Of a stretch of DNA of 64,000 nt, positions 22,792-59,526 are shown in pieces. Below the pieces are notes generated by a model. That model did not search any database, had not been told where the DNA came from, and saw only the letters and a list, made by a program, of their open reading frames with translations. Source of the DNA: Naegleria gruberi (lineage: Eukaryota); NCBI GenBank assembly GCA_000004985.1, contig GG738845.1; one strand, written 5' to 3'. Numbering within the stretch: position 1 is the first letter of the stretch; each line of letters opens with the position of its first letter. The position numbers and the translations under genes are program-made.

Positions 22792-25700
22792 ATGAAAGTA
22801 AACTCGTACGCACCATCAACCGCGTTTAATTTCAACGCTCCCGTGGTTGGTGGCATTTCCACTACAACAGGTAATAGTGCCAATAATGTTTCGGGTGGAA
22901 ATCTTTTTAATGGAAGTATCTTACCATCATCAACAAAAGAACAATTAATGGAATCCAAAAAATTAGTCAATCAAAATTTAGAAAAGGATAGCAAGTTTGT
23001 TGATATTTACGAACTTTCACAAAATCAAAACGATTCCTATGATGAAGTAACGTATCTTGAATTTTTAATAATTTTTAATTTTTATAGTTGTTCGTAAAGA
23101 AACAATTTGTAGCCCTTCCTGATCCAATCTTTGAAGAATATCGTAGACTTGAATACAAATGTTTCATGGGTATTTTCCCTGAAATACATAGAGCTTGGAT
23201 TACTATTGACAACAAATTCTTCATATGGAGTTACTTGGATGGTAGTGATTTTAATGAATATGATGAGTTGGATCAAATAATTATTAGTGCCGGAATTGTG
23301 AAGCCAAAGCCTAATATTTTCAAAGATTATGTTAAATATTTACTAGTATTAGCAACACCAATAGAAATTGTTCTTGTAGCTCTTGCTTTTAACAATAATG
23401 ATGTTTCCTCGCCAATTAATGGTACAGAGACAGAAAAACAACAACATCCTTCATTTGATTCACAAACAGGAAGTATTTATTCTGAAATGGAGCTTTTCCC
23501 AACAAATTATATCATCCCATCAGACAATGTAAACATGTTAAAAATTGTTGGAACAAAAAATGGAAGAATTTTCATGTGTGGAAAAGATGGATGTTTATAT
23601 GAACTTACATATGAACCTGAGGAGGGCTGGTTTAAAAGCAAATGTAGAAAGCTGAACCATTCACAAAGTTTTGTTGGACTTTTAGTCCCTTCCTTCTTAA
23701 AGTTTACTCATGATGATCCTATTATTGATATTGTCGTAGATGACACAAGAAATATTCTTTATACTCTTTCAGATAATATGACCATTGAAGTTTATGATCT
23801 TGGAGAGAATGGGGATAGTATGAGAAAGGTTGTTAGTTATTCTAATTTACTTCAAGATATGATGAGAAAATTTCCAAATTATAATTGTAACTTGAATTCG
23901 CTCAAAATTATTTCAATTGCTCCAATATCTGAAAATGAATCAAAAGCTGTTCACTTGGTTGCCATTACTTCAAAGGGAGATAGAATATTTTTTACAACTG
24001 GCTACTCTCAAGATGGACTTTCCAATTCTGATAGACCTATTGGAATATCTCTTCTTCATATCAAATCAGTTTCATTTACTAGTAACACGATGAGTAATAA
24101 CAAATTTATTCCTGGTGGATTACACAAAATTCATGAATGCTTCTATAAGGATGGTGTTTGCATTTTAGCTGATGAGCTTAGTAACCAAGTTGATTCACTT
24201 GTTTGTTTGTCAATGGAGAGAAAGTATGGAGAATATGGATTTGGTTTAAACGAAAATGTAACCACCAAGCATTTAGATAATGGTATGACACACTCTATTG
24301 CTGAAATTCCTTTGTACTTGGATCCTGTTTTGGTTTCATCCCAAAATAGTCTAAATGAACTTTCATTCCAACACATCAAACCACCAAGAGAGTTCGTTTG
24401 TTTAAGTAATAATGGAATGCATTTGTTGGTAAAGCTTAGACCTGTAGACTTTTTACAACAAATTCTCCAACAAAGTCAATCCGATAGCTTGTTAAATAAT
24501 TTTTTTACAAAATATAGTGATGATGAAGCTTGTGCAATGTGTGTTATGCTAGCTTGCGCACCTCCAGCTTATAATAATATTACTGATCATGATCAACAAC
24601 CAACTCTCCATGACGAAATGCTCATTAAGAGAGCCGAACAAGCTTTCTTTAAATATGGTGGACTTCCTAGATTAGAATCACAAGAAAGAAACATTACTAA
24701 TAACACTATGGGTGGTCCTGTATCGGCAATAGATATCAAGTATAGTGCTCAACACAATGGTTTATATTTATATTTTACAAGATTAATGAGACCTCTATGG
24801 ATTTCTCCTGTATTTAATAGCAGAGTAAGAGACAATGAAACGTTAATTACATCATTACGTTACTCTCCAAAACAGCTTAAATATGTGCAACAATGTCTCT
24901 TTGGTATTTATAATTTTTTGAAACGTAATCCCCAACTGCATGAAATACAATCTAATGTCAAAAAGTCAATCCAAGAAAAGGTTGTAGATTTATATAACAC
25001 AAAGAAAGATGAAGAAGCCAAACGATTGGAACAAAGATCCATCCACAACTTGTATGTCTTACTCAAGAGATGCTACCAAGGATTGATTTTTTTATACTTT
25101 ATGGATAAGTGTAAACTTGCTACATTATTCTCTTCGTACTCACATACTCGAATTTCTCAAATAGCCAGAATGCCGTTCTGTGATTTATTCTTGACATCAG
25201 AAGGCGAAAAGATGATGAAAGAAATGGTAAGAATGGTTGTGATGAGAAGTAAAGAGGTTGATGCCAAACAAAAAATATGTGAAGAACTCAAGAGTTGTGA
25301 TGAGTTCTTTGATCCAAAGGATTTGGAGGAATATAAGGCATTGGATGCATTGGAAAAGGCTAAAATTAAGCACGATCAAGATTCTATGTTTGAATCACTT
25401 GAAATGTTTAAAAAGATTGCTGGTCATATTAATATTTTGGTTGTTTGTAAGGAATTCCAAAAACTTGGCTATTATACAGGTGCTGTTGAATTGGCATTAA
25501 CAAGCGCTGAACAAAGGGATCCAAGCAACTTGGCCTTAGAATGGATAAAGGCAGGTAAACCAGCTCTTGACATGGCTGGTCAGCAAGCTTTCGCTGCTAG
25601 AAATGAATGTTATACATGTGCTTTGAGCTCCTTAGATTTGGCAGATAATGAGGAATCACCAATAATTGGTAATCAAATTGACAAGGAAACCAAATTCTCT

Positions 25701-26786
25701 GATATTCTGGAAAAAATGTCCAAATCAAAGGACTCTCTTTTCCATGACACTCTTTATCAATGGTTAATCGAGCACAATCTCTCTGAAAAGTTATTGAGTT
25801 TGAATACTCCATTTATTGAAAATTTCTTAATTAAGCAAAACAAGCATTATGAGGAGCTTTCTTCTTACTATTTTAATAATAGAAGGTATGATAAGGCAGC
25901 AAAGGTACTTCTTAAACTTGCTGAAACTAAAAGTGATGATGTTAACCTCGATGGAAGAATTCAACACCTCACCCATGCAATTAATTATGCCAAAGCAGCC
26001 CAAACACAGGATGATTTACTAAACAGCCTTCAAGATAAATTAGATGTAGCACTCATCCAACGAAGAGTTCTTAAGCAAATACAAGAAATCAACCATGACT
26101 CGAGTGATATTATTGCTGATTTGGAAAGCTCTCTCTTTGATATTAATACTCTTTATAATAAGTATGCAGAGCCTTTTGATTTGTTAGAGTCTAGACTTTG
26201 TATTCTTCACTGTGCAAAATATAAGAATCACGAGCTAATTCAAGATTTATGGAATGAATTGATTGATATCTCTATTAAAGAGAATAATCTTGAATCTAAG
26301 ATTATAAGTTTAGGAAAGGAACTTACTGGTATTTACTTCCCTCTTGAATTTATTTGTGGCCAATTAGAAAAGAGAACATTGGATTCAAATTTTGAAGCTG
26401 GTTGGGTGGTTAAACTAATGAGAGATAAAGTTGGTGTGAAATACACCAACTTGTACAATGCATACCACAACTTGTATATTTTACTTAGTCCAACCAAGTC
26501 AAAAGTTGGAAAGGATGTAAGCATGTTCTATAATCAAGGTAGATTCGAAAATCTTCCAGACACAAAAGAAATGGTGCTCAGAATTTTAGAAAATATTGCA
26601 AAGATTCTTGGTGATTGGCTAGGCGAAATTAACACACCATACGATTTGCAATACGTCCAAACTTTCTCATTGGGAGATATCAAGAAAGATGTTAATGAAT
26701 ATATTTCAGCCTTGAATTCATTCTCAAAGAGTTCTAAAACTGATGAAATCAAAAAGAATTTAAAGAACATTGTCAATAGTATTTAA
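22792..26786 (+). CDS. NUP155: Nucleoporin Nup155/Nup170 family, two exons.
   Basis: 'CFMGIFPEIHRAWITIDNKFFIWSYLDGSDF' vs human NUP155 '[31 protein letters not shown]'. '[38 protein letters not shown]' vs '[38 protein letters not shown]'. A 41-nt intron sits at 23047-23087. Confidence 0.85.
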
Positions 26787-26835
26787 TAAATTAACGGAAA
26801 CTTTCCCGCCTTTTGAATATAATTAAACAAAAAAA

Positions 26836-27879
26836 ATGGAATTGTTCGACATTGAAGAAGCCATAATGAACCACCAAACCAAGAGTATTTCGGATCATGA
26901 TCAAGTAACAATAGAAAAACCATCAAACACAAGTAATCACACACAAGATGAACAAGCAGAAAATCACACACCACTAATTTTACATGATCCGCTTACCCAC
27001 TCCGTTGAGCATAACAACTCGGATACAATGAACACTTCATTAACGGATGAACCAATGGAACCTGTCACAAATAGTAACATTGAAAAGCAAACATCTTGTT
27101 CATCTCCTTCTATTCCCACATCAATAACTAATAATTCTATGTCTGCATCACCTTCAGAACAGCTAAACACTTCTTTTGAACAAATTAGACAACCGGAAGA
27201 GCAACAATTGCATCGTTTTGCAGAGGACAAAGAAGAACTAGGAAGATATCACTCCCTGAAGCAAGCCATTGATACCATGTTCAAAAATGTAATGAATATG
27301 CGGGGCACTAATGTTCAATCACATAGAAATGAGACCCCTTTTGATATTGCTGTATCTCAATTCCCCAAACAATTTCTTCAAAAATACGAAAGTGCAATGC
27401 TAGAAGTTTTCATAGCAATGCAAAAACGAGAATCAGAAGGTTTCCTGGAAGAATGTAGCCATTACTTGAAAGAAAGAGGGGTCAGACAAAAACTGAATGC
27501 TCTAGATCGAACACATAAATTGAGTGATTGTATAGTTTATATGAAAAGAGGCACAGTCCTTAGCCAAACGGAATCTAGTTACGTTGTTTTATCAAAAGAG
27601 TTGGAAGATGAAAATTTAATGAAGAAAAAAACCTGTCTTTCCCAATTACAAGATTACCTCCAAATCAAGAAGCAATTTCTACAAGAAATACAAAACCATA
27701 ACAATCACGTAAGGCATATGAATGAGGAACTAAGGAAAAAGAATGATTTCCTTATGGAATGTATTCAAACCAGCCTATTACCCGATCTGAAATCGAAACT
27801 TTCTCCAATACTCTCTTCATGCGAAAACATAGATGATTATTGCAATAGAGCACAATCACAACAATCCTCATACAACTAG
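26836..27879 (+). CDS. Hypothetical 347-aa protein: S/T-rich N-terminus and predicted coiled-coil C-terminus.
   Basis: Long ORF with an A-rich Kozak start and a clean stop. I recognised no family. Confidence 0.45.
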   Translation: MELFDIEEAIMNHQTKSISDHDQVTIEKPSNTSNHTQDEQAENHTPLILHDPLTHSVEHNNSDTMNTSLTDEPMEPVTNSNIEKQTSCSSPSIPTSITNNSMSASPSEQLNTSFEQIRQPEEQQLHRFAEDKEELGRYHSLKQAIDTMFKNVMNMRGTNVQSHRNETPFDIAVSQFPKQFLQKYESAMLEVFIAMQKRESEGFLEECSHYLKERGVRQKLNALDRTHKLSDCIVYMKRGTVLSQTESSYVVLSKELEDENLMKKKTCLSQLQDYLQIKKQFLQEIQNHNNHVRHMNEELRKKNDFLMECIQTSLLPDLKSKLSPILSSCENIDDYCNRAQSQQSSYN

Positions 27880-27903
27880 TTGGAGAAACTATATAGTGTC
27901 ACT

Positions 27904-30900
27904 TTATTGGAAATTTACGGATATCTCAGTATTGTTTTCCATAAATACAAACTCTGCAATGTAATAAATAGCATGAGGAGAAATTGTGTGATTTTTCCCA
28001 ATTCTTTCTTTAAAGTAAAATCCTTCGATGAACCAATCAAACACATTATCTACCATAAAGCCAAAATTGTCGTTCAAGTCGTACAACTTTTGTGGTTCAG
28101 GGAAATGAAAAAGTGCTTTTGGATTTTTGCATACAGTCCTTGCCTCCACTACCTTATCAAAAAGGGAATAGAATTTAATTCTTTCTGTCTCTGTAGTATC
28201 ACATTTTACATTAAATACAATCTTTCCTTGATTTTCATCCTCCATCATATCTGAGTCTTGTCTTATTATGTGAAATTGGTAATAGGTTATTGGAGCTTTA
28301 AATATATGGTCAACTGTCACATGTCGTTTCTGTTCATAGAATAGAATGCTTCCATGTTTGTTAATAAATAACTGCTTGGGTATTTGATCAGGTAATTGGA
28401 TCGGTATTTTTTCCATTGAAACAGAGATGGTTTTGTTCGTAGAGAATATTGGAAGACTAAGGCTCATACTTTTGTTAGATTTCTTTAAAATGTTTCCATA
28501 TGCGCGAGAAATGAGCTCAGAACTACTAGTAGTTCCTACATTTTTGAATTGAGTGTTCAACTGATTTACCCATTTTTTTCTTTTTTCGGCTTGTATTGGA
28601 TCAAATTTTTGGTTCTTTTCTAAGTTAACTCTAATTTTGTTGTTTTCTATTTGTATGTTTAGAGCAATCTCATTATAATATCTGTTCTCCTCGGTTTCGA
28701 ATATCTCATCTTTAGTTAGACGAGAAGTGTGCGTCTTAGTAGCTCTGAGTTTAATAGAAGGAGCTCTTGGTTTTTGTAGTGTTGGAGGGATATATACAGT
28801 TATATCAGAATCCATTCCACCTATTTCATTTGAAAATGTACCATCATCAATATTTTGAGGTTCTGTAGGTTGAATGGATCCTTGGATTGGTGGATTGGTG
28901 GTTGTAAGCACATGAAGATCTTCAAATACTATATTCATACTGGCATGATTATCTGTATCTATCTGTTCATGTGCTGAGTTTTGTACAACGTTAGAAGATG
29001 TTTCTTCAATAAGAATAGGTGCAACTTCAGTTTCTTTCTTACGTTTTGGAATTTTCACGCTTGCCAAATCTACTGTTTCATCTGTATGTTGTGATATGAT
29101 GGTTGGAATTTTGATAATACACGACAAATTTGAATTTTCATTTTCTATTGCTTTTTTCTTTTCCTCTTTCTTTTTTTCCTTTTTTTCCTTTTTTTCTTTC
29201 TTTTCTTTTTTCTCTTCTTTCTTTTTCTCCTTCTTTTCTTTCTTCTCTTTCTTCTCTTTTTTTTCTTTCTTTTCTTTCTTTTCTTTTTTCTCCTCTTTTC
29301 TATCTTCTCTTTTTGATTTATCTTCCTTCATTTTCTTATCATCCTTAACTTTATCTTCTCCTTTCTTTTTAATAGATGGCAGTGGAATGTCCATAGAAGG
29401 AGAAAAAATACCAATAGGACCCTCGGATGATGTGCTGGGTTGTATTGGTTGAGTACTTGGATATATTGAGGTACTACTTGGAGGTAGAGGTGGAGGAAGT
29501 ACCAATTGCATTGGTTGAACTGTTTGAGTACTTGGGTATGTTGATGGAGGAGATTGCACAGTTGAAGGAGTTGGGTTTCAGGAACCTCTCGCTGAAGTGT
29601 ATTATTCTCTAAATTATTTTCCAAAAAAACTGGAGAAGGAGGTTTGATTTCAGGTTTGGTTTTCTTTGCTATTTTTGGAATGTCATGAAAGGCTGTTGTC
29701 TGTATTAATACACTTGTAGATGATTTAACATCTGTAATTGGATTAGGGAATTTTTCAGACTCATTAATAGGAGTCTCTAATATACGAGTGGTGTTTAGCT
29801 CATTAACAGGCACAGGGGGGATACTGTCTTTTGGTGACTGTTTTCTGTTTGACTTTATCTCATTGTCTGAATCAGAAGATTCTGTTTCTTCATCCTCCGA
29901 GTTAATAATTTTTTTGGACAATGGTCTAGATTCTCTTGGTTCTTCCTTTTCAATAGTAGGTTGGGAAACTGTTGGGGGTGTAATCGAAACAGGAATTTCG
30001 TATGACATAGTTCCCGGAGATAGTTCAGTAATCTTCTTTGTGTGCAATAAACTTTCAACATCGGCCATAAATTTTATCATTGCTTTTGTTGCCTTTGTGG
30101 TTTTTTTTGTTGTTACTTTTTCCACTTCATGTTTTACACATTTAGTTATGTGCGATAAATCTGATATCAGTGCATCCACATTCCTATAGAAATGACTCTG
30201 TAGTCTACCAGATACAGTAGCAAATAGCATTGGATGGGGAGTATTTTGAAGAAATGGAAGGTTTGAGCATTCAGAATTTGTGAAATCTGTTAAAATTTGT
30301 GCTACTTTTGTTTCAAGTGTAGGATCTATTTTTGGTAGTACTTTTTTCGCTTCTTCTTCTACTTCTTTGATTTCCCAAACACTAATATCTTCCGTGTCAT
30401 TTGTATCCCATGAGATGTGCAAGGTTTCAAATAGGCAATGAGGTTCATTAGGTTTAGTTTTGATCTCTTGAATTAAACCAGTGTAGGGAATTGGTAGCTT
30501 TGTAGTGGCATCAATAAAATCCATAGTTATTGACATTTTATCTCTGAGTGATTTATAGTATTGTGCTGATTTCAAATAGTGTTCGTATGTGATAATGAAT
30601 GGCCTACAATCCGAATAGCATAAATCAAAATTAAGAGTATCACCAACCTTTACCGAGTAAGGCAAAGTACTGTTGAGAATTTCCTCTTTCATGATTTCTT
30701 TTACTGTGAGTGTTAGAGTAAAAAAATTAAATCTACTTGGTTTTAATCCATTTTGTGACTTTGATATTAAACTATCCAATTCAGTGATGAAAACATTCTT
30801 GTATTCGATTTTGGATATGATACACCTAGTAGAAGGGGGAAATTTAGATACATCCCTCTTAAATCCATTAGGTGTTTGTTTAGTTTGAAAATATTTTAGA

Positions 30901-31259
30901 AAAAATGGAAGTACAGTGTGTTTTGTAACACTTTCACAATAGGAGATATACCCATCCCTAATGAAAACAATATCATCACCCAATTGTGGGACATAGAATT
31001 GAGTAGGTTTGTAGTCTGTTTCAAATGCAATATGAACAGATTGCTCCAAAGTTTGTTTAAAGTCATCAAAATAAGTGTCATAATCCTTATTAGCTTCCTC
31101 CTTCACTGAGAGAGTTCCGTTTTTATACTCATAAACTTGTTTCGATTTAGATCTTGTAGTTTTTGTTTTTTTTCTTGTGTTTTCACTTTGTACGTGTTCA
31201 TTGTCACTATCATCGGTTGATTCCGATCCCGTACTTTTTGATGGTTGTTTTCTCTTCAT
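27904..31259 (-). CDS. Large chromatin-protein-like gene, about 1100 aa if joined. It has a BRWD/PHIP-like 'GDxVxFxRxGY' module, an acidic/basic (KEKKEK)n tract and a P/S/T-rich segment. The reading frame is interrupted by a +1 shift near 29560-29580.
   Basis: ORF 29328..31259 (N-terminal part: 'YVPQLGDDIVFIRDGYISY', like BRWD1/PHIP 'PQMGDEVIYFRQGHEAY') and ORF 27904..29559 (P/S/T-rich, then ~50 residues of KEKKEKKEKK, then a C-terminal globular domain) overlap in different frames. The sensible frame switches within 'cctgaaacccaactccttcaactgtgcaatctcc'. The 'M' at 29559 is a GTG. Confidence 0.5.
29150..29340. repeat. About 190-bp polypyrimidine (top strand) / polypurine tract encoding a (KEKKEK)n low-complexity repeat.
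   Basis: The top strand is almost pure C/T ('ttttctttcttttcttttttctcttctttc...'). The + strand poly-F/S ORFs at 29096..29452 are its antisense artefacts. Confidence 0.8.
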
Positions 31260-31351
31260 TTTTTTAATTATTAATAATATTCAAAAATAATATTCTGATG
31301 ATATTAAAATTTTCCAACATACAACAAATTCCATACAACAAAAAAAATATC

Positions 31352-32838
<1,487 letters not shown>

Positions 32839-32844
32839 ACTTTA

Positions 32845-35242
32845 TCACTTTTTAAACGATTTTTGTTTTTCTATCTTTGATAATTGCAAAGCTTCTTGAA
32901 TACTTTTTTCCAATTTTCCAATTTCACTTTCTACTTCATTGGCAAAATTTAGAAGCTCGTTTAGGTTTTTGTTGTCTATCAATTCCTCAGAAACTTCTCT
33001 ACATTCTGTGCAGTGGTAATGGAATGAATTGGTGGCATGATCCAATTTTTTGACTTTGTCGATACTGCAACATTTTGTGCAAAAGGCATGCCCACATGTA
33101 AATATCTTGGGTCGAAGCGTTGGTTCTTTGCAATGACAACACTTAGTATATCTCTCAACACCTTCGTAGAGCACCTTAATTCTGAATGCCACCCTCTCAG
33201 AAGAAGCAACCTTTTGAGCTAAGGAATCATAAATTTTTCTCAGATAATCATTACGATTTCTAAGTTCGTATAAAAGATGCGAATCAACTTGAGTAGGCGT
33301 TGTAATACTTTCTTCCGCATTGACTTGACTTAGTCCCTGAAGCACTTGTTTTTCTTGTTGGTTTTTGATTAAAGAGTTGTCGAAAAACATGAAAGGATTC
33401 TTTTGGTGTGGAGAAGTTTGGGCAGTACCCTTACTTTTTTGATATTCATATAATTGATCTCTCAACTGAAAAAATATAACTTCTCGATCAGTTATTATGT
33501 ACTTACGTAAGATACAGTGTCTCTAGTTCTAGATAAATTTTCATGAAGCTCTTTGTTAACCATAAACATTTCAAAAAGAGCTTTTTCATTCAAGGTCCCA
33601 TCTTCATTAAAGAAGTGTTTAATGAAATCAGCCATTAAATCCTGTTTTTCTTTGTTGGATAATTTGTCATCATTCGACATTATTTTAGAAAGGGTTTGTT
33701 CTGCAGTTTTTGCAGGTCTTCCATTAATCATTTTATCCATTTCTTTCTTCATGGATTCATATCTTTCTTTATACATAGACATTTCATTAATTAAATTACT
33801 GGCATCATCATATTTTTTCCTCAGATCTGCCATTTGTTCTTTTAATTTCTTCTTTATATCAGTAATTCAGACCTCGTTCAACATACCTCTAGTTGTCTTC
33901 TTATTTGTTTATCTTTAATAAAATTATTAACTATATTATCAGATCTATCTTCCTTTACTCCAATAAGCTCGCTCGAATACTTTTTCATTATGTTCTCAAT
34001 TTCTTTTCTCATACTTAATTGAATCTTTTTAACTTTTTCTTTAAAAGCTGATGTAACTTTGAATATAATATCATTAGTCACCTTAACGTGCTCCTCAATA
34101 GTTATTGTTTCTTGGCCTTTTCTTTTTGCCTTTTCTTCCTTCAGATTCAAATAGTAGGAAGTCCTTAATGAGTCATAAATTAATTGTTCAGTTTCAGAAT
34201 TAGGATTGAAATCATTATCCTCATCCTTTTCATCATTTAAAGATATTGTATGAAATTTTGAGGACATATTGTCATCCAGCTTGGAGCTAAAACTATTAGA
34301 AGCTTCCTCCATAAAGTTTCTTATCTTCTTCCTTGCTGTTGATGGAAGAGATTTGGAGCTAGGAATATTTTTAAGACCACTATATCTCCTGGTAGCACCA
34401 GCACTAGCAACTCTGTTGAAAGATGATCTTGCAAAAACAGCGTCAGATCTGGAAGTTAAGGTTACTGATCGTGTGAGATCTTCTTCACTTTTTACCCAAT
34501 TTACCCTTACACTGTTCAAACTATTTCCAAATGCATCTGTTGTTAACATGTCTAGTGTATCAAGAGGTAACTGGGGTATATGGAGCTTGGAACTGAGAGC
34601 TCCAAGCTCTTTGGCAAAAGGTGCTTGTACACTTTTTGGCAAGACATCCAATCCTGCAGATGGGTCCACAGTTGTGGTAAAAACTTGTTGATTGTAAACT
34701 TGTTGCTCACTTCTGACAGTGGGAGAGAGAGGAGGCCTTTCTACAAAACCTCCTCCCTTTGCATTCTTATCTTTTTCAGGATTGTGTCTCAACATTGGAA
34801 ATCGTTTTAGAAGGAATTTTTGTGTATTGATTGGTCTAGAAATGTTAATCATGTCTTCGCTAACTATTTTCCTATCGACATCCGTCAATGAGGGTGGGTA
34901 CAAATCGAAAAGTGCCATTTTGTCCCTCACACCTATTGTTCTCTGTTTCTTTTCTTTCAAGTATGGTCGTTCCTTAAAAACAGGCCTATTAGGCACAGTG
35001 GTTGGTTGAACATTTTCCTTACACAGTTCTTCAGTGGGACCAATTGAAGCATCTTGTTGGGAGAAGGTTTGATTGGATTGCTCGCTTAACGTATTGAAGG
35101 TATCAGAAGAAGAGGTTGGAGTTTGTGCGGGGGATGGTATAGAGAGCCTTACACTATTAATTTGATGAAGATTGAGAGGGGGTACTCCAACTTTTGCTTG
35201 ATGAGGTGTAGATCCCGAAGATGATGAAACTACAACAGACAT
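32845..35242 (-). CDS. Ser-rich / coiled-coil protein with C-terminal C3HC4 RING finger. Three ORF-track pieces are joined by two short introns.
   Basis: ORFs 33878..35242, 33495..33833 and 32845..33465 join in frame through GTATGT (35 nt, about 33844-33878) and GTAAGT (41 nt, about 33467-33507) introns. The RING is 'CCHCKEPTLRPKIFTCGHAFCTKCC..HYHCTEC' (C-x2-C..C-x-H-x2-C-x2-C..C-x2-C). A separate-genes alternative is not excluded. Confidence 0.5.
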
Positions 35243-55441: not shown

Positions 55442-55488
55442 AAAAAATAAATAATTAAAAAATAATTAAAAGTTTCGTAATTATTTTA

Positions 55489-56121
55489 CTAATTATCTTG
55501 CTGTGTCACTATCGATGTTCTATAATATTTATCTCTTTTGGAAAGAATAGCAGAGCATGCTGAACGTAATCTGTTAATTTCCATAGCTGTCAAACTTGTA
55601 AAAGAATAGCCCGGGAAGTAATCTTCTGCTTCAACATCTGCCAGACCTTTAGTCAGACCATCCGTCAGATTATCTCTTCTTTTATCTTCAATAGTTTTTA
55701 AGAGAGATGAAATTTCTTCTGGATTCTCTTCAAAATCATTTTTGGCACTTGATCACTTTGTGTTATTAATTCGAATTAATAAAAACATTACCTACATTTT
55801 CAATAAAAGATATCCTATTTCTAAAAAGTGATTTGGCATTGGATAAAATTGGTGACTAACAGATGACTTTACTGATGCCTCCTCTAGCCAGGAAACTTGA
55901 AGCCATTCGGGTATTATTATTTTACATTGATTCAATTTTTTGAGATGAATAGCTGCCCACAAAGGAATTGTAATTTCTTGATTGGCAAGAGCAGGTCCTA
56001 TTGAACAGGTTATTAACTTGATGTGTGGAAGGTTTTTTGTTGGTCGGATTGTTATCATGGTTTCCTCTGCCAAGTACTCCAACTCTTCGTTAGATATTAG
56101 GTTCTCCCTATGTCTAAACAT
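55489..56121 (-). CDS. GINS2: GINS complex subunit Psf2, two exons.
   Basis: Exon 1 'EELEYLAEETMITIRP..IKLI..GPALANQEITIPLWAAIHLKKLNQCKIIIPEWLQV..FYPMPNHFLEIGYLLLK' vs human GINS2 '[71 protein letters not shown]'. A 48-nt intron (GTAGGT) joins to exon 2 'AKNDFEENPEEISSLLKTIEDKRRDNL..FTSLTAMEINRLRSACSAIL'. Stop at 55489-55491. Confidence 0.75.
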
Positions 56122-56188
56122 TTTTTAAAAAAGTTGGCGGGAATGTTTGAAATTAAAAATAATTTAAAACTCCATTCAATCAAAAAAA

Positions 56189-59100
56189 ATGCAAAAACTT
56201 TCATCGCAAAAATCTCTTAAGAGTTTACTTTACGGAAAAAAGTCTGTCAATCTAAAGATTAATTTACCTTCACAATTCAGGAATTATAGTTTTAAAAAAA
56301 CAAATTCCGATTATTCAATTTTGAAGGAAGGCGATAATATTCATGGTTGGGTCCTAACTTCAATAGAAAATTTGAAAGATTTTGACTTGGTTGCCTATCG
56401 TTTAAAACATTCACAAACTGGAGCTGAATACTTGCATCTTGACGCTCCTTTTGATATGAATAATTCATTTGCAATTAATTTTGAAACACCTCCAACTGAT
56501 GATACCGGTATGCCACACATTCTTGAACATACAACTCTTTGTGGCAGTGAAAAATATCCAGTTCGTGACTTGTTCTTTAACATGATGAAGAGAAGTTTAA
56601 ACACTTATATGAATGCCTACACAGCAAGCGATCATACCACATATCCTTTCAGTACTCAAAATGAAAAAGATTTTTATAATTTGATGTCTGTGTATTTGGA
56701 TTCTACTTTAAATCCTAGGATTTTAGAAACAGATTTCAAACAAGAGGGACATAGACTAGAGTTTGAAGATCCTCTCGACTTGAATTCAAATTTACAAATC
56801 AAAGGAGTTGTTTATAATGAAATGAAGGGAGCCATGAGTGATAGTAATCAATTCTTTGCTTATAATTTACAAAAATCAATTCTTCCAAATACTGTTTATG
56901 CTTTTAACAGTGGAGGTGACCCATCAGCCATACCAAATTTGACTTACAATCAATTGAAACAATTCCACCAACAAAATTACCATCCTAGCAGGGCAAAAAT
57001 TTTTACTTATGGATCTTTTTCATTTATTAATCATATCAATTTTTTAAATGAAAATGCCTTTTCAAAATTTTCTGAATTACCAGTAAGAAATTCTTCAAGC
57101 AAAGTTGAAAAATTTACAGAACCTAAACAAGTAGAAGTGTTTGGGCCACCAGATTCCATGGTTATTGATGAGGAAAAGCAAACTAAAGTCTCTGTTTCTT
57201 ACTTGATGAATGACAACTCTGATGATTTTGAAACCTTTTCCCTTTCTTTTCTATCCGCCCTATTGATGGACGAGCCAAGGGGTGTTTTTTACAAGAATTT
57301 AATTGCTTCAGGATTGGCTCCAGATTTTTCTCCTTATTGTGGTTTTGACTCTTCAATGAGCACTCCAATATTTTCTATTGGAGCTCAAGGTGTTGCAAAG
57401 AAAGACGTAGAAAGTATTGAGCAGGCAATAAGAGCAACATTTGAAGAAGTAGTTCATAATGGAATTGATCAGGGTCTCATAGATACAGTTTTACATAACG
57501 TGGAATTATCAATCAAGAAAAAGTCAACCAATTTTGGTGTAAACATTTGTTATCCAGTATTCTCCAACTGGATTCACAACAATGACCCAACAGGTACTTT
57601 TAAAATTAATAGTCAAATTGAAAGATTGAGAGGTGAACTTGAAAATCCAAACTTTTTCAAAGAGAAAATCAAAAAATATTTTATTGAAAATCCGCACCGT
57701 GTTACATTTGTAATGCATCCAGATCCTAAATATTTCGAGAACCAAGAGAAGAATGAAAATGAAAGAATTGAAAAAATATCCAATTCACTAACTGAATCTG
57801 AAAAAATCAAGCTTATTGAGCAATACAAGGAAATGGAGAAGGCAAAAGAATCACAGGAAAAAAATGTTGAACTATTACCTACTGTCACAATCAGTGATCT
57901 GTCCAGACAAATCATGGATCCCCAAAATGTTCAGTCTCTTCCAGGATCTCCAGAATTCCACCTTAATGTAGTCAAGGGAACTAATGGTATTGTACAAGTA
58001 ACATCCATAGTTCCAATATCATTAGCAGAAATTCCAGATCATTTACAAAAATTTGTTCCAATATTTGGTAATGTAGGTATTTTATCAAGTATTTAACTAA
58101 TTTTTATTTCTTCTTATGTAAAGTTACTTGTAAGAGTTGGTACATCACAAATGGATTATCTCCAATTGGCCCACCAAATAGAATTGCATACCGGTGGCAT
58201 TGATGCTAGCCCTTTAATCATTCCAAGTTTAGAAAAGCTGAATGACTTTTCTTTTGCCCTTAAATTCTCTTCATACTGTTTGGAAAGAAATGTAGAAAAA
58301 ATGATTGAGCTCATGAGAGAAATTTACACAAATACCAACTTTTTTGGAAATTTAAATTATTTACAATCTTGTATTGATCAATCAGCAAGTGATGCAGCAA
58401 GCGGAATACTTCAAAGTGGTCACCACTACGCCAAGCTCCATGCTTCATCCTCTCTTTCATTTTATGACTATTTAGTAAATAGTACCAGTGGTATTGGTGC
58501 TATGAAGTTTATTAAGGAACTCTCATCAAATGCTGATACTGAGTTAATCGCCACCTCACTTCAAGAATTGGCTCCTTACCTTCTCAGAAAGGATAAAATG
58601 AAATTCCTCATCACATGTGAGGAGCATCAGGCAACTAGAGTTATGAATGTAGTGAAGGAGCAATTCTATGAATCAATTCACAATAACTCTGTATCAAGTT
58701 TGGAAAAGATGAAGGCCCAATTAGACTTTAAGCCTAATTTTGTCAATACCTATCTTTCTATTCCTTCTTCGGTTAGCTTTGTTGGTAGAGCTTTAGCCAC
58801 AGCACCATTTGCTACAAAGGATTCGGCTCTCTTGAGGGTAGTTTCAACAGTATTGCATTCTAATTACTTGCATCAAGAGGTTAGAGAACGTGGTGGCGCT
58901 TATGGATCCAATGCCTCACAAAGTATGAATGGAGTTTTCACGTTTACCTCATATAGAGATCCAAATCCAAGCAGAAGTATTGCTATTATGGCTAATGCCT
59001 CTGATTGGATCCAAAAGCTTGGTTCAGTAACTAGCAAAACTGTTCAGGAAGCAAAACTTCAAGTTTTCCAACAATTAGATGCTCCTGTCACTCCACACGT

Positions 59101-59329
59101 TCATGCCCAAAGCAAGGTTATATATGGTATTAACGATGATTTGCGTCAGTTCAGAAGAAACGTTGTTCTAGATGCCACAAGGGAAGATCTTATTGATACT
59201 TGTGTTAGATATCTAGGAGGAGAAAATGACAAATCTTCCTCCAATACAATTATTGGAGGCAGTATTGAGAAGGACATTGACCAAAACGAAATGTCAAAAT
59301 GGGTATTAGTTAAAGATGAACTTAATTGA
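56189..59329 (+). CDS. Mitochondrial presequence protease (M16C, PreP/Cym1), two exons.
   Basis: join(56189..58072, 58124..59329) with a 51-nt GTAGGT intron. The inverted zinc motif 'HILEHTTLCGSEKYPVRD' is present. 'LAHQIELHTGGIDASP' vs human PITRM1 'QAQQIELKTGGMSASP'. '[28 protein letters not shown]' vs '[28 protein letters not shown]'. Confidence 0.85.
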
Positions 59330-59526
59330 ATTAAAATAAAAATGAACATTTTACATCCATTTCATTTTCCAGCCATTAAAATGCATGTAGTTCAAAATAT
59401 TTTCATTTATTTCCTTGTGTATTATTTTTCTATTTTCAGTTAGAAAGGTGTTAGATTTGTGTGTTTTTGGAAACCTTTTTTGAAATGTGCACTTTCTGCA
59501 ACACGAAACCAATTCAAATAAAAAAT

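Follow-up and report, generated by a model that had tools for sequence, protein, structure and literature searches.

A conserved chromatin-reader-like gene of Naegleria gruberi whose reading frame is broken once in the reference sequence

The metazoan proteins PHIP, BRWD1 and BRWD3 combine a crypto-Tudor domain with bromodomains, and the region of the form Y-[VI]-P-Q-x-G-D is one that we take, as did the initial annotation of the locus described here, to be a motif region of PHIP/BRWD. The same succession of this motif region and a bromodomain, here a degenerate one, is seen in a gene on the minus strand at positions 27904-31259 of a 64 000-nucleotide (nt) stretch of Naegleria gruberi contig GG738845.1 (assembly GCA_000004985.1), referred to here as the window. 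The gene has counterparts in Naegleria fowleri (FDP41_011429) and Naegleria lovaniensis (C9374_003770) with the same order of conserved blocks, the same C-terminal domain and a lysine/glutamate (K/E)-rich patch at the same position; whereas both of these are encoded in one frame, the N. gruberi gene has a broken frame and a pure K/E run.

The likeness to PHIP and the BRWD proteins, evident as BRWD_AD matches below the Pfam threshold in all members of the gene family, has clear limits. The Naegleria protein differs from PHIP, BRWD1 and BRWD3 in having one bromodomain rather than two and an unrelated C-terminal domain, and, because it also lacks a WD40 propeller and has not conserved the acetyl-lysine asparagine, we regard it as sharing their reader module rather than as their orthologue. 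A second likeness is to the ancillary domain of plant ARF proteins (PDB 4LDU and 4LDX), which is matched with an E-value of 1e-7 when a profile of the eight family members (alignment A2) is searched against PDB, accompanied by a weak match to the preceding strand of the ARF dimerisation domain and by weak Pfam ARF_AD matches; the Naegleria protein is, however, without the B3 DNA-binding and PB1 domains of the plant proteins, and the likeness is confined to the Tudor-like fold element. The BRWD/PHIP-type label given to the gene at the outset nevertheless holds at the level of the family, in view of the UniProt name of the N. fowleri orthologue, the BRWD_AD matches below threshold, and the profile matches to the ARF ancillary domain and to bromodomains.

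Two long minus-strand open reading frames (ORFs) that overlap in different frames were noted initially and are present in the ORF list. ORF A (29328..31259) encodes 643 amino acids (aa) from its ATG, and ORF C (27904..29559) encodes 551 aa from a GTG; frame C is open from 29577, its last stop being the TGA at 29580-29578, and the two frames overlap by 250 nt. The features of the gene are as follows.

27904..31259, minus strand: whole gene, from the ATG at 31259-31257 to the stop at 27906-27904; about 1117 codons once the frame is repaired
29581..31259, minus strand: 5' coding segment in frame A, residues 1 to about 560, with a basic N-terminus, Tudor-like region, degenerate bromodomain and acidic serine-rich linker
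30939..30995, minus strand: YVPQLGDDIVFIRDGYISY motif of residues 89-107, better conserved than any other block of the family
30345..30485, minus strand: BRWD_AD-like (Tudor-like ancillary) domain, residues 259-305, from Pfam PF25313 and the family profile
30126..30263, minus strand: degenerate bromodomain core, residues about 333-378, from Pfam, the BRD1 alignment and the family profile
29540..29580, minus strand: interval holding the frame lesion, 3' of the frame-C TGA at 29580-29578, in the context CCTGAAACCCAACTCC, placed by codon layout and the switch in codon usage
29328..29576, minus strand: noncoding, out-of-frame tail of ORF A, 82 codons and a TGA, with a negative codon-usage score and without a counterpart in the orthologues
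27904..29577, minus strand: 3' coding segment in frame C, with the K/E tract between two linkers, the first rich in proline/serine/threonine, followed by the conserved C-terminal domain
29151..29301, both strands: pure tract of 151 nt, polypurine on the coding strand and polypyrimidine on the plus strand, where it consists of 113 T and 38 C
27907..28700, minus strand: conserved C-terminal domain of about 265 aa, with motifs QAEKR..W, FYSLFDKV and FDWF.EGFYFK

The position of the break is indicated by a codon-usage log-likelihood ratio trained on 30 other ORFs of the window, which is positive in frame A down to about 29640 and in frame C from about 29580 to the stop at 27904, and negative over the entire 82-codon tail of ORF A. 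At about 29580 the coding signal leaves frame A and continues without interruption in frame C, in agreement with the earlier reading that the ORF A tail is nonsense and that frame C is coding from the same region. The distance 31259-29577=1682=3x560+2 puts frame C in the -1 (=+2) frame relative to frame A, and the switch is not the +1 one first described. The lesion amounts to the loss of one base or the gain of two, somewhere from 29580 to about 29540, at a site (CCTGAAACCCAACTCC) whose longest runs are A3 and C3. Apart from this one break, both halves are free of stops and coding-scored over 3.3 kb. The several lesions and the loss of coding signal that would mark a decayed pseudogene were not found; there is one break, and the codon-usage score is positive along both halves.

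That the two ORFs belong together is indicated by their relatives. An exhaustive phmmer search with a construct joining the N- and C-terminal parts gave eight hits, with best E-values of 1e-68 (N. lovaniensis) and 5e-67. Four of the proteins concerned are listed here.

P0001: N. lovaniensis C9374_003770, 977 aa, matched in two stretches
P0002: N. fowleri fragment, 381 aa, with P0009 in the same cluster
P0009: N. fowleri FDP41_011429 (XP_044567212.1, UniRef A0A6A5CB61), 1218 aa, named 'BRWD/PHIP ancillary-like domain-containing protein' in UniProt
P0007: Pharyngomonas kirbyi, 1116 aa, a complete transcript ORF, matched in three stretches

Read one after the other, ORF A and ORF C align collinearly with P0009, P0001 and P0007, the identity to the N. 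fowleri protein being 37%. The MKRKQ start is common to N. gruberi ORF A, N. fowleri and N. lovaniensis, the ...INSQ end is common to P0009 and ORF C, and tblastx against both Naegleria loci gives matches on one strand, from 31043 to 27991. The N. lovaniensis gene runs through 1320 codons as one ORF without a break (L003:2972-6934), and exon 1 of the N. fowleri gene encodes residues 1-855 in one frame, across the equivalent of the N. gruberi junction; in the N. gruberi reference, the single frame that characterizes these orthologues is interrupted between 29580 and 29540. The sequence encoded in frame C 5' of the K/E tract (PPPLPP...DIPLPSIKKK) has its equivalents in N. lovaniensis (PPPPPPLHSLKDLPTIQKKK) and N. 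fowleri (LPSLPNIQKKKK), and the out-of-frame tail of ORF A has no counterpart in the orthologues. Because the orthologues carry both halves, share the frame C motifs and leave the ORF A tail unmatched, we interpret the two ORFs as halves of one ancestral intronless gene, as in the original proposal of one large chromatin-type gene cut by a frame switch, which these comparisons strongly support. The gene is the N. gruberi orthologue of FDP41_011429, and the break is specific to the N. gruberi reference sequence. The orthologues were found by the exhaustive search only: word-indexed homology searches gave no matches, whether the query was the N-terminal part, the C-terminal part or a shortened N-terminal core, and scans of JGI metagenomes with a junction-adjacent 27-mer and the N-terminal protein were likewise empty.

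The gene models of the two orthologues have peculiarities of their own. The deposited 977-aa model of N. lovaniensis (PYSW02000001.1) begins at an internal methionine, and the ORF extends 343 codons upstream to MKRKQ and includes the Tudor-like region. The sole annotated intron of N. fowleri FDP41_011429 (L002:8567-8753, VFQX01000009.1) is 187 nt long, begins GTAGGA and ends CTAG, and changes the frame; it spans ten Ns in a histidine/proline-rich coding stretch well 3' of the equivalent of the N. gruberi junction, and seems to have been introduced in annotation to bridge an assembly gap, rather than being a real intron.

We would give a consensus error of the draft assembly about an even chance of lying behind the break, and infer that it is slightly likelier than a real mutation. 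The break would arise as a consensus error of a scaffolded draft; a run of 328 Ns at 2567-2894, within an ORF region at 1421-2908 on the plus strand, is a scaffold gap, from which it follows that the source is a gapped draft assembly, and we count this in favour of an error. The break site is also about 275 nt from the 151-nt polypurine tract, a sequence that would be expected to hamper cloning and sequencing.

Several points weigh against an error, and by the same token favour a real and recent frameshift allele in strain NEG-M. No other unexplained frame break is present in the approximately 30 genes of the window, and the lesion site is not a long homopolymer. Independent data are available in three Illumina metagenome contigs (ERZ929261 / ERR1078381, PRJEB11402) that are 99.86-99.92% identical to NEG-M and cover 25063-28330, 31383-33499 and 55485-59430; over these 9.3 kb they differ from the window by nine substitutions and no indels, so that the reference is not generally indel-prone, although their coverage excludes 28331-31382 and the junction therefore lies outside the comparison. 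In addition, NEG-M is reported to be a heterozygous diploid (PMC9928731, citing Fritz-Laylin 2010), and on that statement a real null allele is plausible. Such an allele, which we regard as quite possible though short of an even chance, would have arisen by a 1-nt deletion or a 2-nt insertion, and would be fixed in a long-cultured axenic strain or carried on one haplotype. Its product would be a Tudor/bromodomain protein cut short and ending in 82 nonsense residues, without the K/E tract and the C-terminal domain. The apparent lack of the gene from public N. gruberi protein sets (see below) is in keeping with a real allele, whereas the presence of a single lesion between halves that both retain their full coding signal argues against it. 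Moreover, selection should oppose the loss of a gene whose conservation extends from Naegleria to Pharyngomonas, and the sole substitution in the C-terminal half relative to the metagenome strain (n=1) is synonymous, ATC>ATT.

The metagenome contigs indicate that an N. gruberi strain all but identical to NEG-M was present in the environmental or host material sampled; one of them (L006) begins with 102 nt that have no alignment in the window, and a literature search for the project PRJEB11402 found no paper.

All explanations other than a consensus error or a real allele are improbable even when taken together. The initial annotation had listed a pseudogene, an assembly indel, and programmed or unusual splicing; the first two remain live, while recoding and splicing are disfavoured, and the break is absent from the orthologues.

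It is very unlikely that the locus consists of two independent genes, the upstream one ending with the TGA at 29330-29328 and the downstream one starting at an ATG at 29511, 29394 or 29331. The last of these overlaps the stop of ORF A in the sequence ATGA (29331-29328, minus strand), an arrangement that would suit termination-reinitiation, and the N- and C-terminal modules do occur separately in database fragments such as P0003, P0005 and P0008. The separate hits are, however, mostly short contig fragments, and full-length homologues in three heteroloboseans hold both modules in one chain. The tail of frame A is not coding-scored, whereas the 82 codons of frame C that precede the ATGA, which encode TVQSPPSTYPSTQTVQPMQLVLPPPLPPSSTSIYPSTQPIQPSTSSEGPIGIFSPSMDIPLPSIK among other peptides, are open and coding and include motifs shared with the orthologues, and because of this the overlap is probably coincidental. 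It is similarly hard to credit that the break is genuine and either tolerated or used, with a truncated reader made from frame A and the K/E and C-terminal part made by reinitiation at the ATGA, or with the two joined by a non-canonical -1 recoding; if so, the gene would have undergone a lineage-specific split while remaining single in other heteroloboseans.

Programmed -1 frameshift sites, such as those of retroviral gag-pol and coronavirus ORF1a/1b, likewise lie between two long ORFs that overlap, the downstream one being in the -1 frame, and here too the two frames are adjacent and both open over 250 nt. The N. gruberi gene differs from these: the switch point lacks a slippery heptamer, a stimulatory structure is absent, and the orthologues do not share the shift. 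No heptamer of the form X XXY YYZ lies within 29580-29540, and frame A has a single canonical -1 heptamer, U UUU UUG at 29628-29622, from which a stop is reached after three codons. The 140 nt of RNA downstream of the junction have a minimum free energy of -9.8 kcal/mol (z=-0.7 against shuffles), and so form no stable structure. Transcriptional slippage, for its part, would find no run longer than A3 or C3, and the N. fowleri exon 1 and N. lovaniensis ORF are in one frame throughout the equivalent region. We therefore see hardly any likelihood that ribosomal frameshifting or transcriptional slippage joins frames A and C. From these sequence comparisons, the break would appear to be a lesion of the sequence itself and not a decoding signal.

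An unconventional short intron is no better a prospect: although 61 GT-AG pairs with lengths of 3n+2 would restore an open frame, none of the 61 has the G+5/T+6 found in every local intron (the confirmed and likely introns of the window, of 37-59 nt, have the 5' sites GTAAGT, GTGAGT, GTATGT and GTACGT, that is, GTNNGT), the shortest candidate (GTGCAA...CCAAG, 29559-29531) is only 29 nt long and thus below the local range, all candidates, this one and the 44-56 nt GT-AG pairs further 3' included, would either remove coding-scored frame C sequence or keep frame A nonsense, and the orthologues are intronless at the equivalent place. The failure to find a canonical frame-restoring intron reported initially is thus borne out, in that no GT-AG pair fits the local consensus. 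A U12-type splice site (ATATCC, at about 29466) was also considered and was dropped for want of any supporting feature.

Once repaired, the gene would encode a nuclear-type product of about 1117 residues made up of a Tudor-like domain of the BRWD_AD type, a degenerate bromodomain, a long disordered linker with the K/E tract, and the conserved C-terminal domain. In the eight-sequence alignment A2 the Y, P, Q, D, F and G columns of the YVPQLGDDIVFIRDGYISY block are invariant, and by tblastx the block is 59% identical to both Naegleria loci. The PF25313 match scores 24.7 bits (E=1.9e-5), below the 40-bit cutoff, and relatives score 19.5-37.4 bits. The bromodomain (PF00439) scores 14.1 bits in the N. 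gruberi protein, below the cutoff of 21.7, but the scores of two relatives, P0003 (24.7 bits) and P0005 (25.7 bits), exceed it, and the family profile matches bromodomains in PDB with E-values from 1e-8 to 1e-6 for PBRM1 and BRD4 (1.4e-8 for PBRM1), BRD1 also being matched. The acetyl-lysine asparagine is replaced, KHE standing opposite KYN in the BRD1 alignment and the family sequence 'vkre(S)' opposite 'akrYN' of PBRM1. The statement that no obvious bromodomain is present can be upheld in part only, since a degenerate, weakly matched one follows the Tudor-like region. The absence of WD40 repeats can be upheld, since none was matched in the N-terminal 561 aa at E<=1, nor in P0009, P0007 or the N. 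lovaniensis ORF.

The C-terminal domain is 46-47% identical to those of the Naegleria orthologues, and 20% identical to those of Pharyngomonas and of a protein from a Logan contig; it has no match in Pfam or PDB. Single-sequence AlphaFold2 models of both modules were unusable, with predicted local distance difference test (pLDDT) values of 34 and 35. From its domain content, we suggest that the protein may function as a chromatin reader.

The K/E tract is the longest pure purine/pyrimidine run of the window, in which no other exceeds 32 nt. It had been described as 190 bp of pure polypyrimidine, but the pure run is 151 nt, and extends to 174 nt (29141-29314) only if three purines are allowed. 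Its product (KEEKKEKKEKK...) is a run of 49 residues of pure K/E with one AGA arginine codon before it, and because all lysine and glutamate codons are purine-only, the polypurine character merely restates the K/E composition. Tandem Repeats Finder (TRF) reports imperfect periods of 9, 18 and 51 nt with 73-79% matches, and the tract contains a perfect mirror repeat of 18+18 nt with a 1-nt spacer, so that it has the mirror symmetry expected of a homopurine-homopyrimidine sequence that can form H-DNA. In this it resembles H-DNA-forming repeats such as (GAA)n, which likewise are pure purine-pyrimidine sequences, and differs from them in being imperfect, not a microsatellite, and in frame within a coding region. 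H-DNA would be compatible with the sequence, while the tract itself is adequately explained as low-complexity K/E coding sequence. The orthologues have an interrupted K/E-rich patch at the equivalent place, which in N. gruberi has been homogenised to the pure run.

The window as a whole is gene-dense, with a G+C content of about 32%, and is from N. gruberi NEG-M. Seven of its ORFs are identical to NEG-M proteins, including EFC50334, EFC50328 and EFC50667 of a 1.56-Mb scaffold, and the two-intron splice of the neighbouring RuvBL1 gene is exactly XP_002683069.1; Rfam and tRNA scans of the window revealed no RNA genes. Base composition and intron size had brought fungi, apicomplexans, ciliates, Galdieria and a nucleomorph into consideration as the source, and the exact protein matches led to the rejection of all of them. 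An ORF of 347 aa at 26836-27879 on the plus strand, 25 nt from the stop of the gene described here, has a weak Nnf1-like match; its exact product is found only in a European Nucleotide Archive (ENA) metagenome contig and not among the N. gruberi proteins of NCBI, UniProt or EukProt, and the ORF may be unannotated or differently modelled. The segment 19514-22699 (plus strand) encodes an Integrator subunit 8-like protein (TPR_INTS8, E=1.6e-20), and housekeeping genes nearby include those for Nup155/170, BRF1, TFIIF-beta, an Obg GTPase, Brix/RPF2 and proteasome alpha-5. At 56189-59329 (plus strand) there are two ORFs of 635 and 392 aa in the same frame with a stop between them, which GenBank gives as one presequence protease of 1029 aa (XP_002683079.1) and a metagenome gene caller keeps separate. 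The overlapping ORF pairs 8051/8538, 16599/17086 and 6101/6352 were considered as further frameshifts and rejected: the first reflects a gene boundary, the second a start codon and the third a GTACGT intron.

Neither ORF A nor four start variants of ORF C are on record in exact look-ups, and homology, exhaustive and exact searches brought up no N. gruberi protein that corresponds to one or the other half, although other proteins of the window are present in the same collections. The gene thus appears to have been left out of the public N. gruberi protein sets, and the frame break is plausibly the reason. In pangenome comparisons, one of which has reported 599 genes as absent in N. gruberi (PMC9928731), it would accordingly be scored 'absent in N. 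gruberi'.

In summary, this is an ordinary case of a frame-broken or mis-sequenced copy of a conserved lineage-specific gene, and no new mechanism is indicated. Its value is for annotation: comparison with the orthologues has revealed two faulty models, the false intron over an N gap in N. fowleri and the N-terminal truncation in N. lovaniensis, and has delimited a conserved C-terminal domain with no relative in Pfam or PDB, as well as bringing to light a conserved heterolobosean gene, chromatin-reader-like in its predicted domain content, that was hidden in N. gruberi, probably by one frame break.

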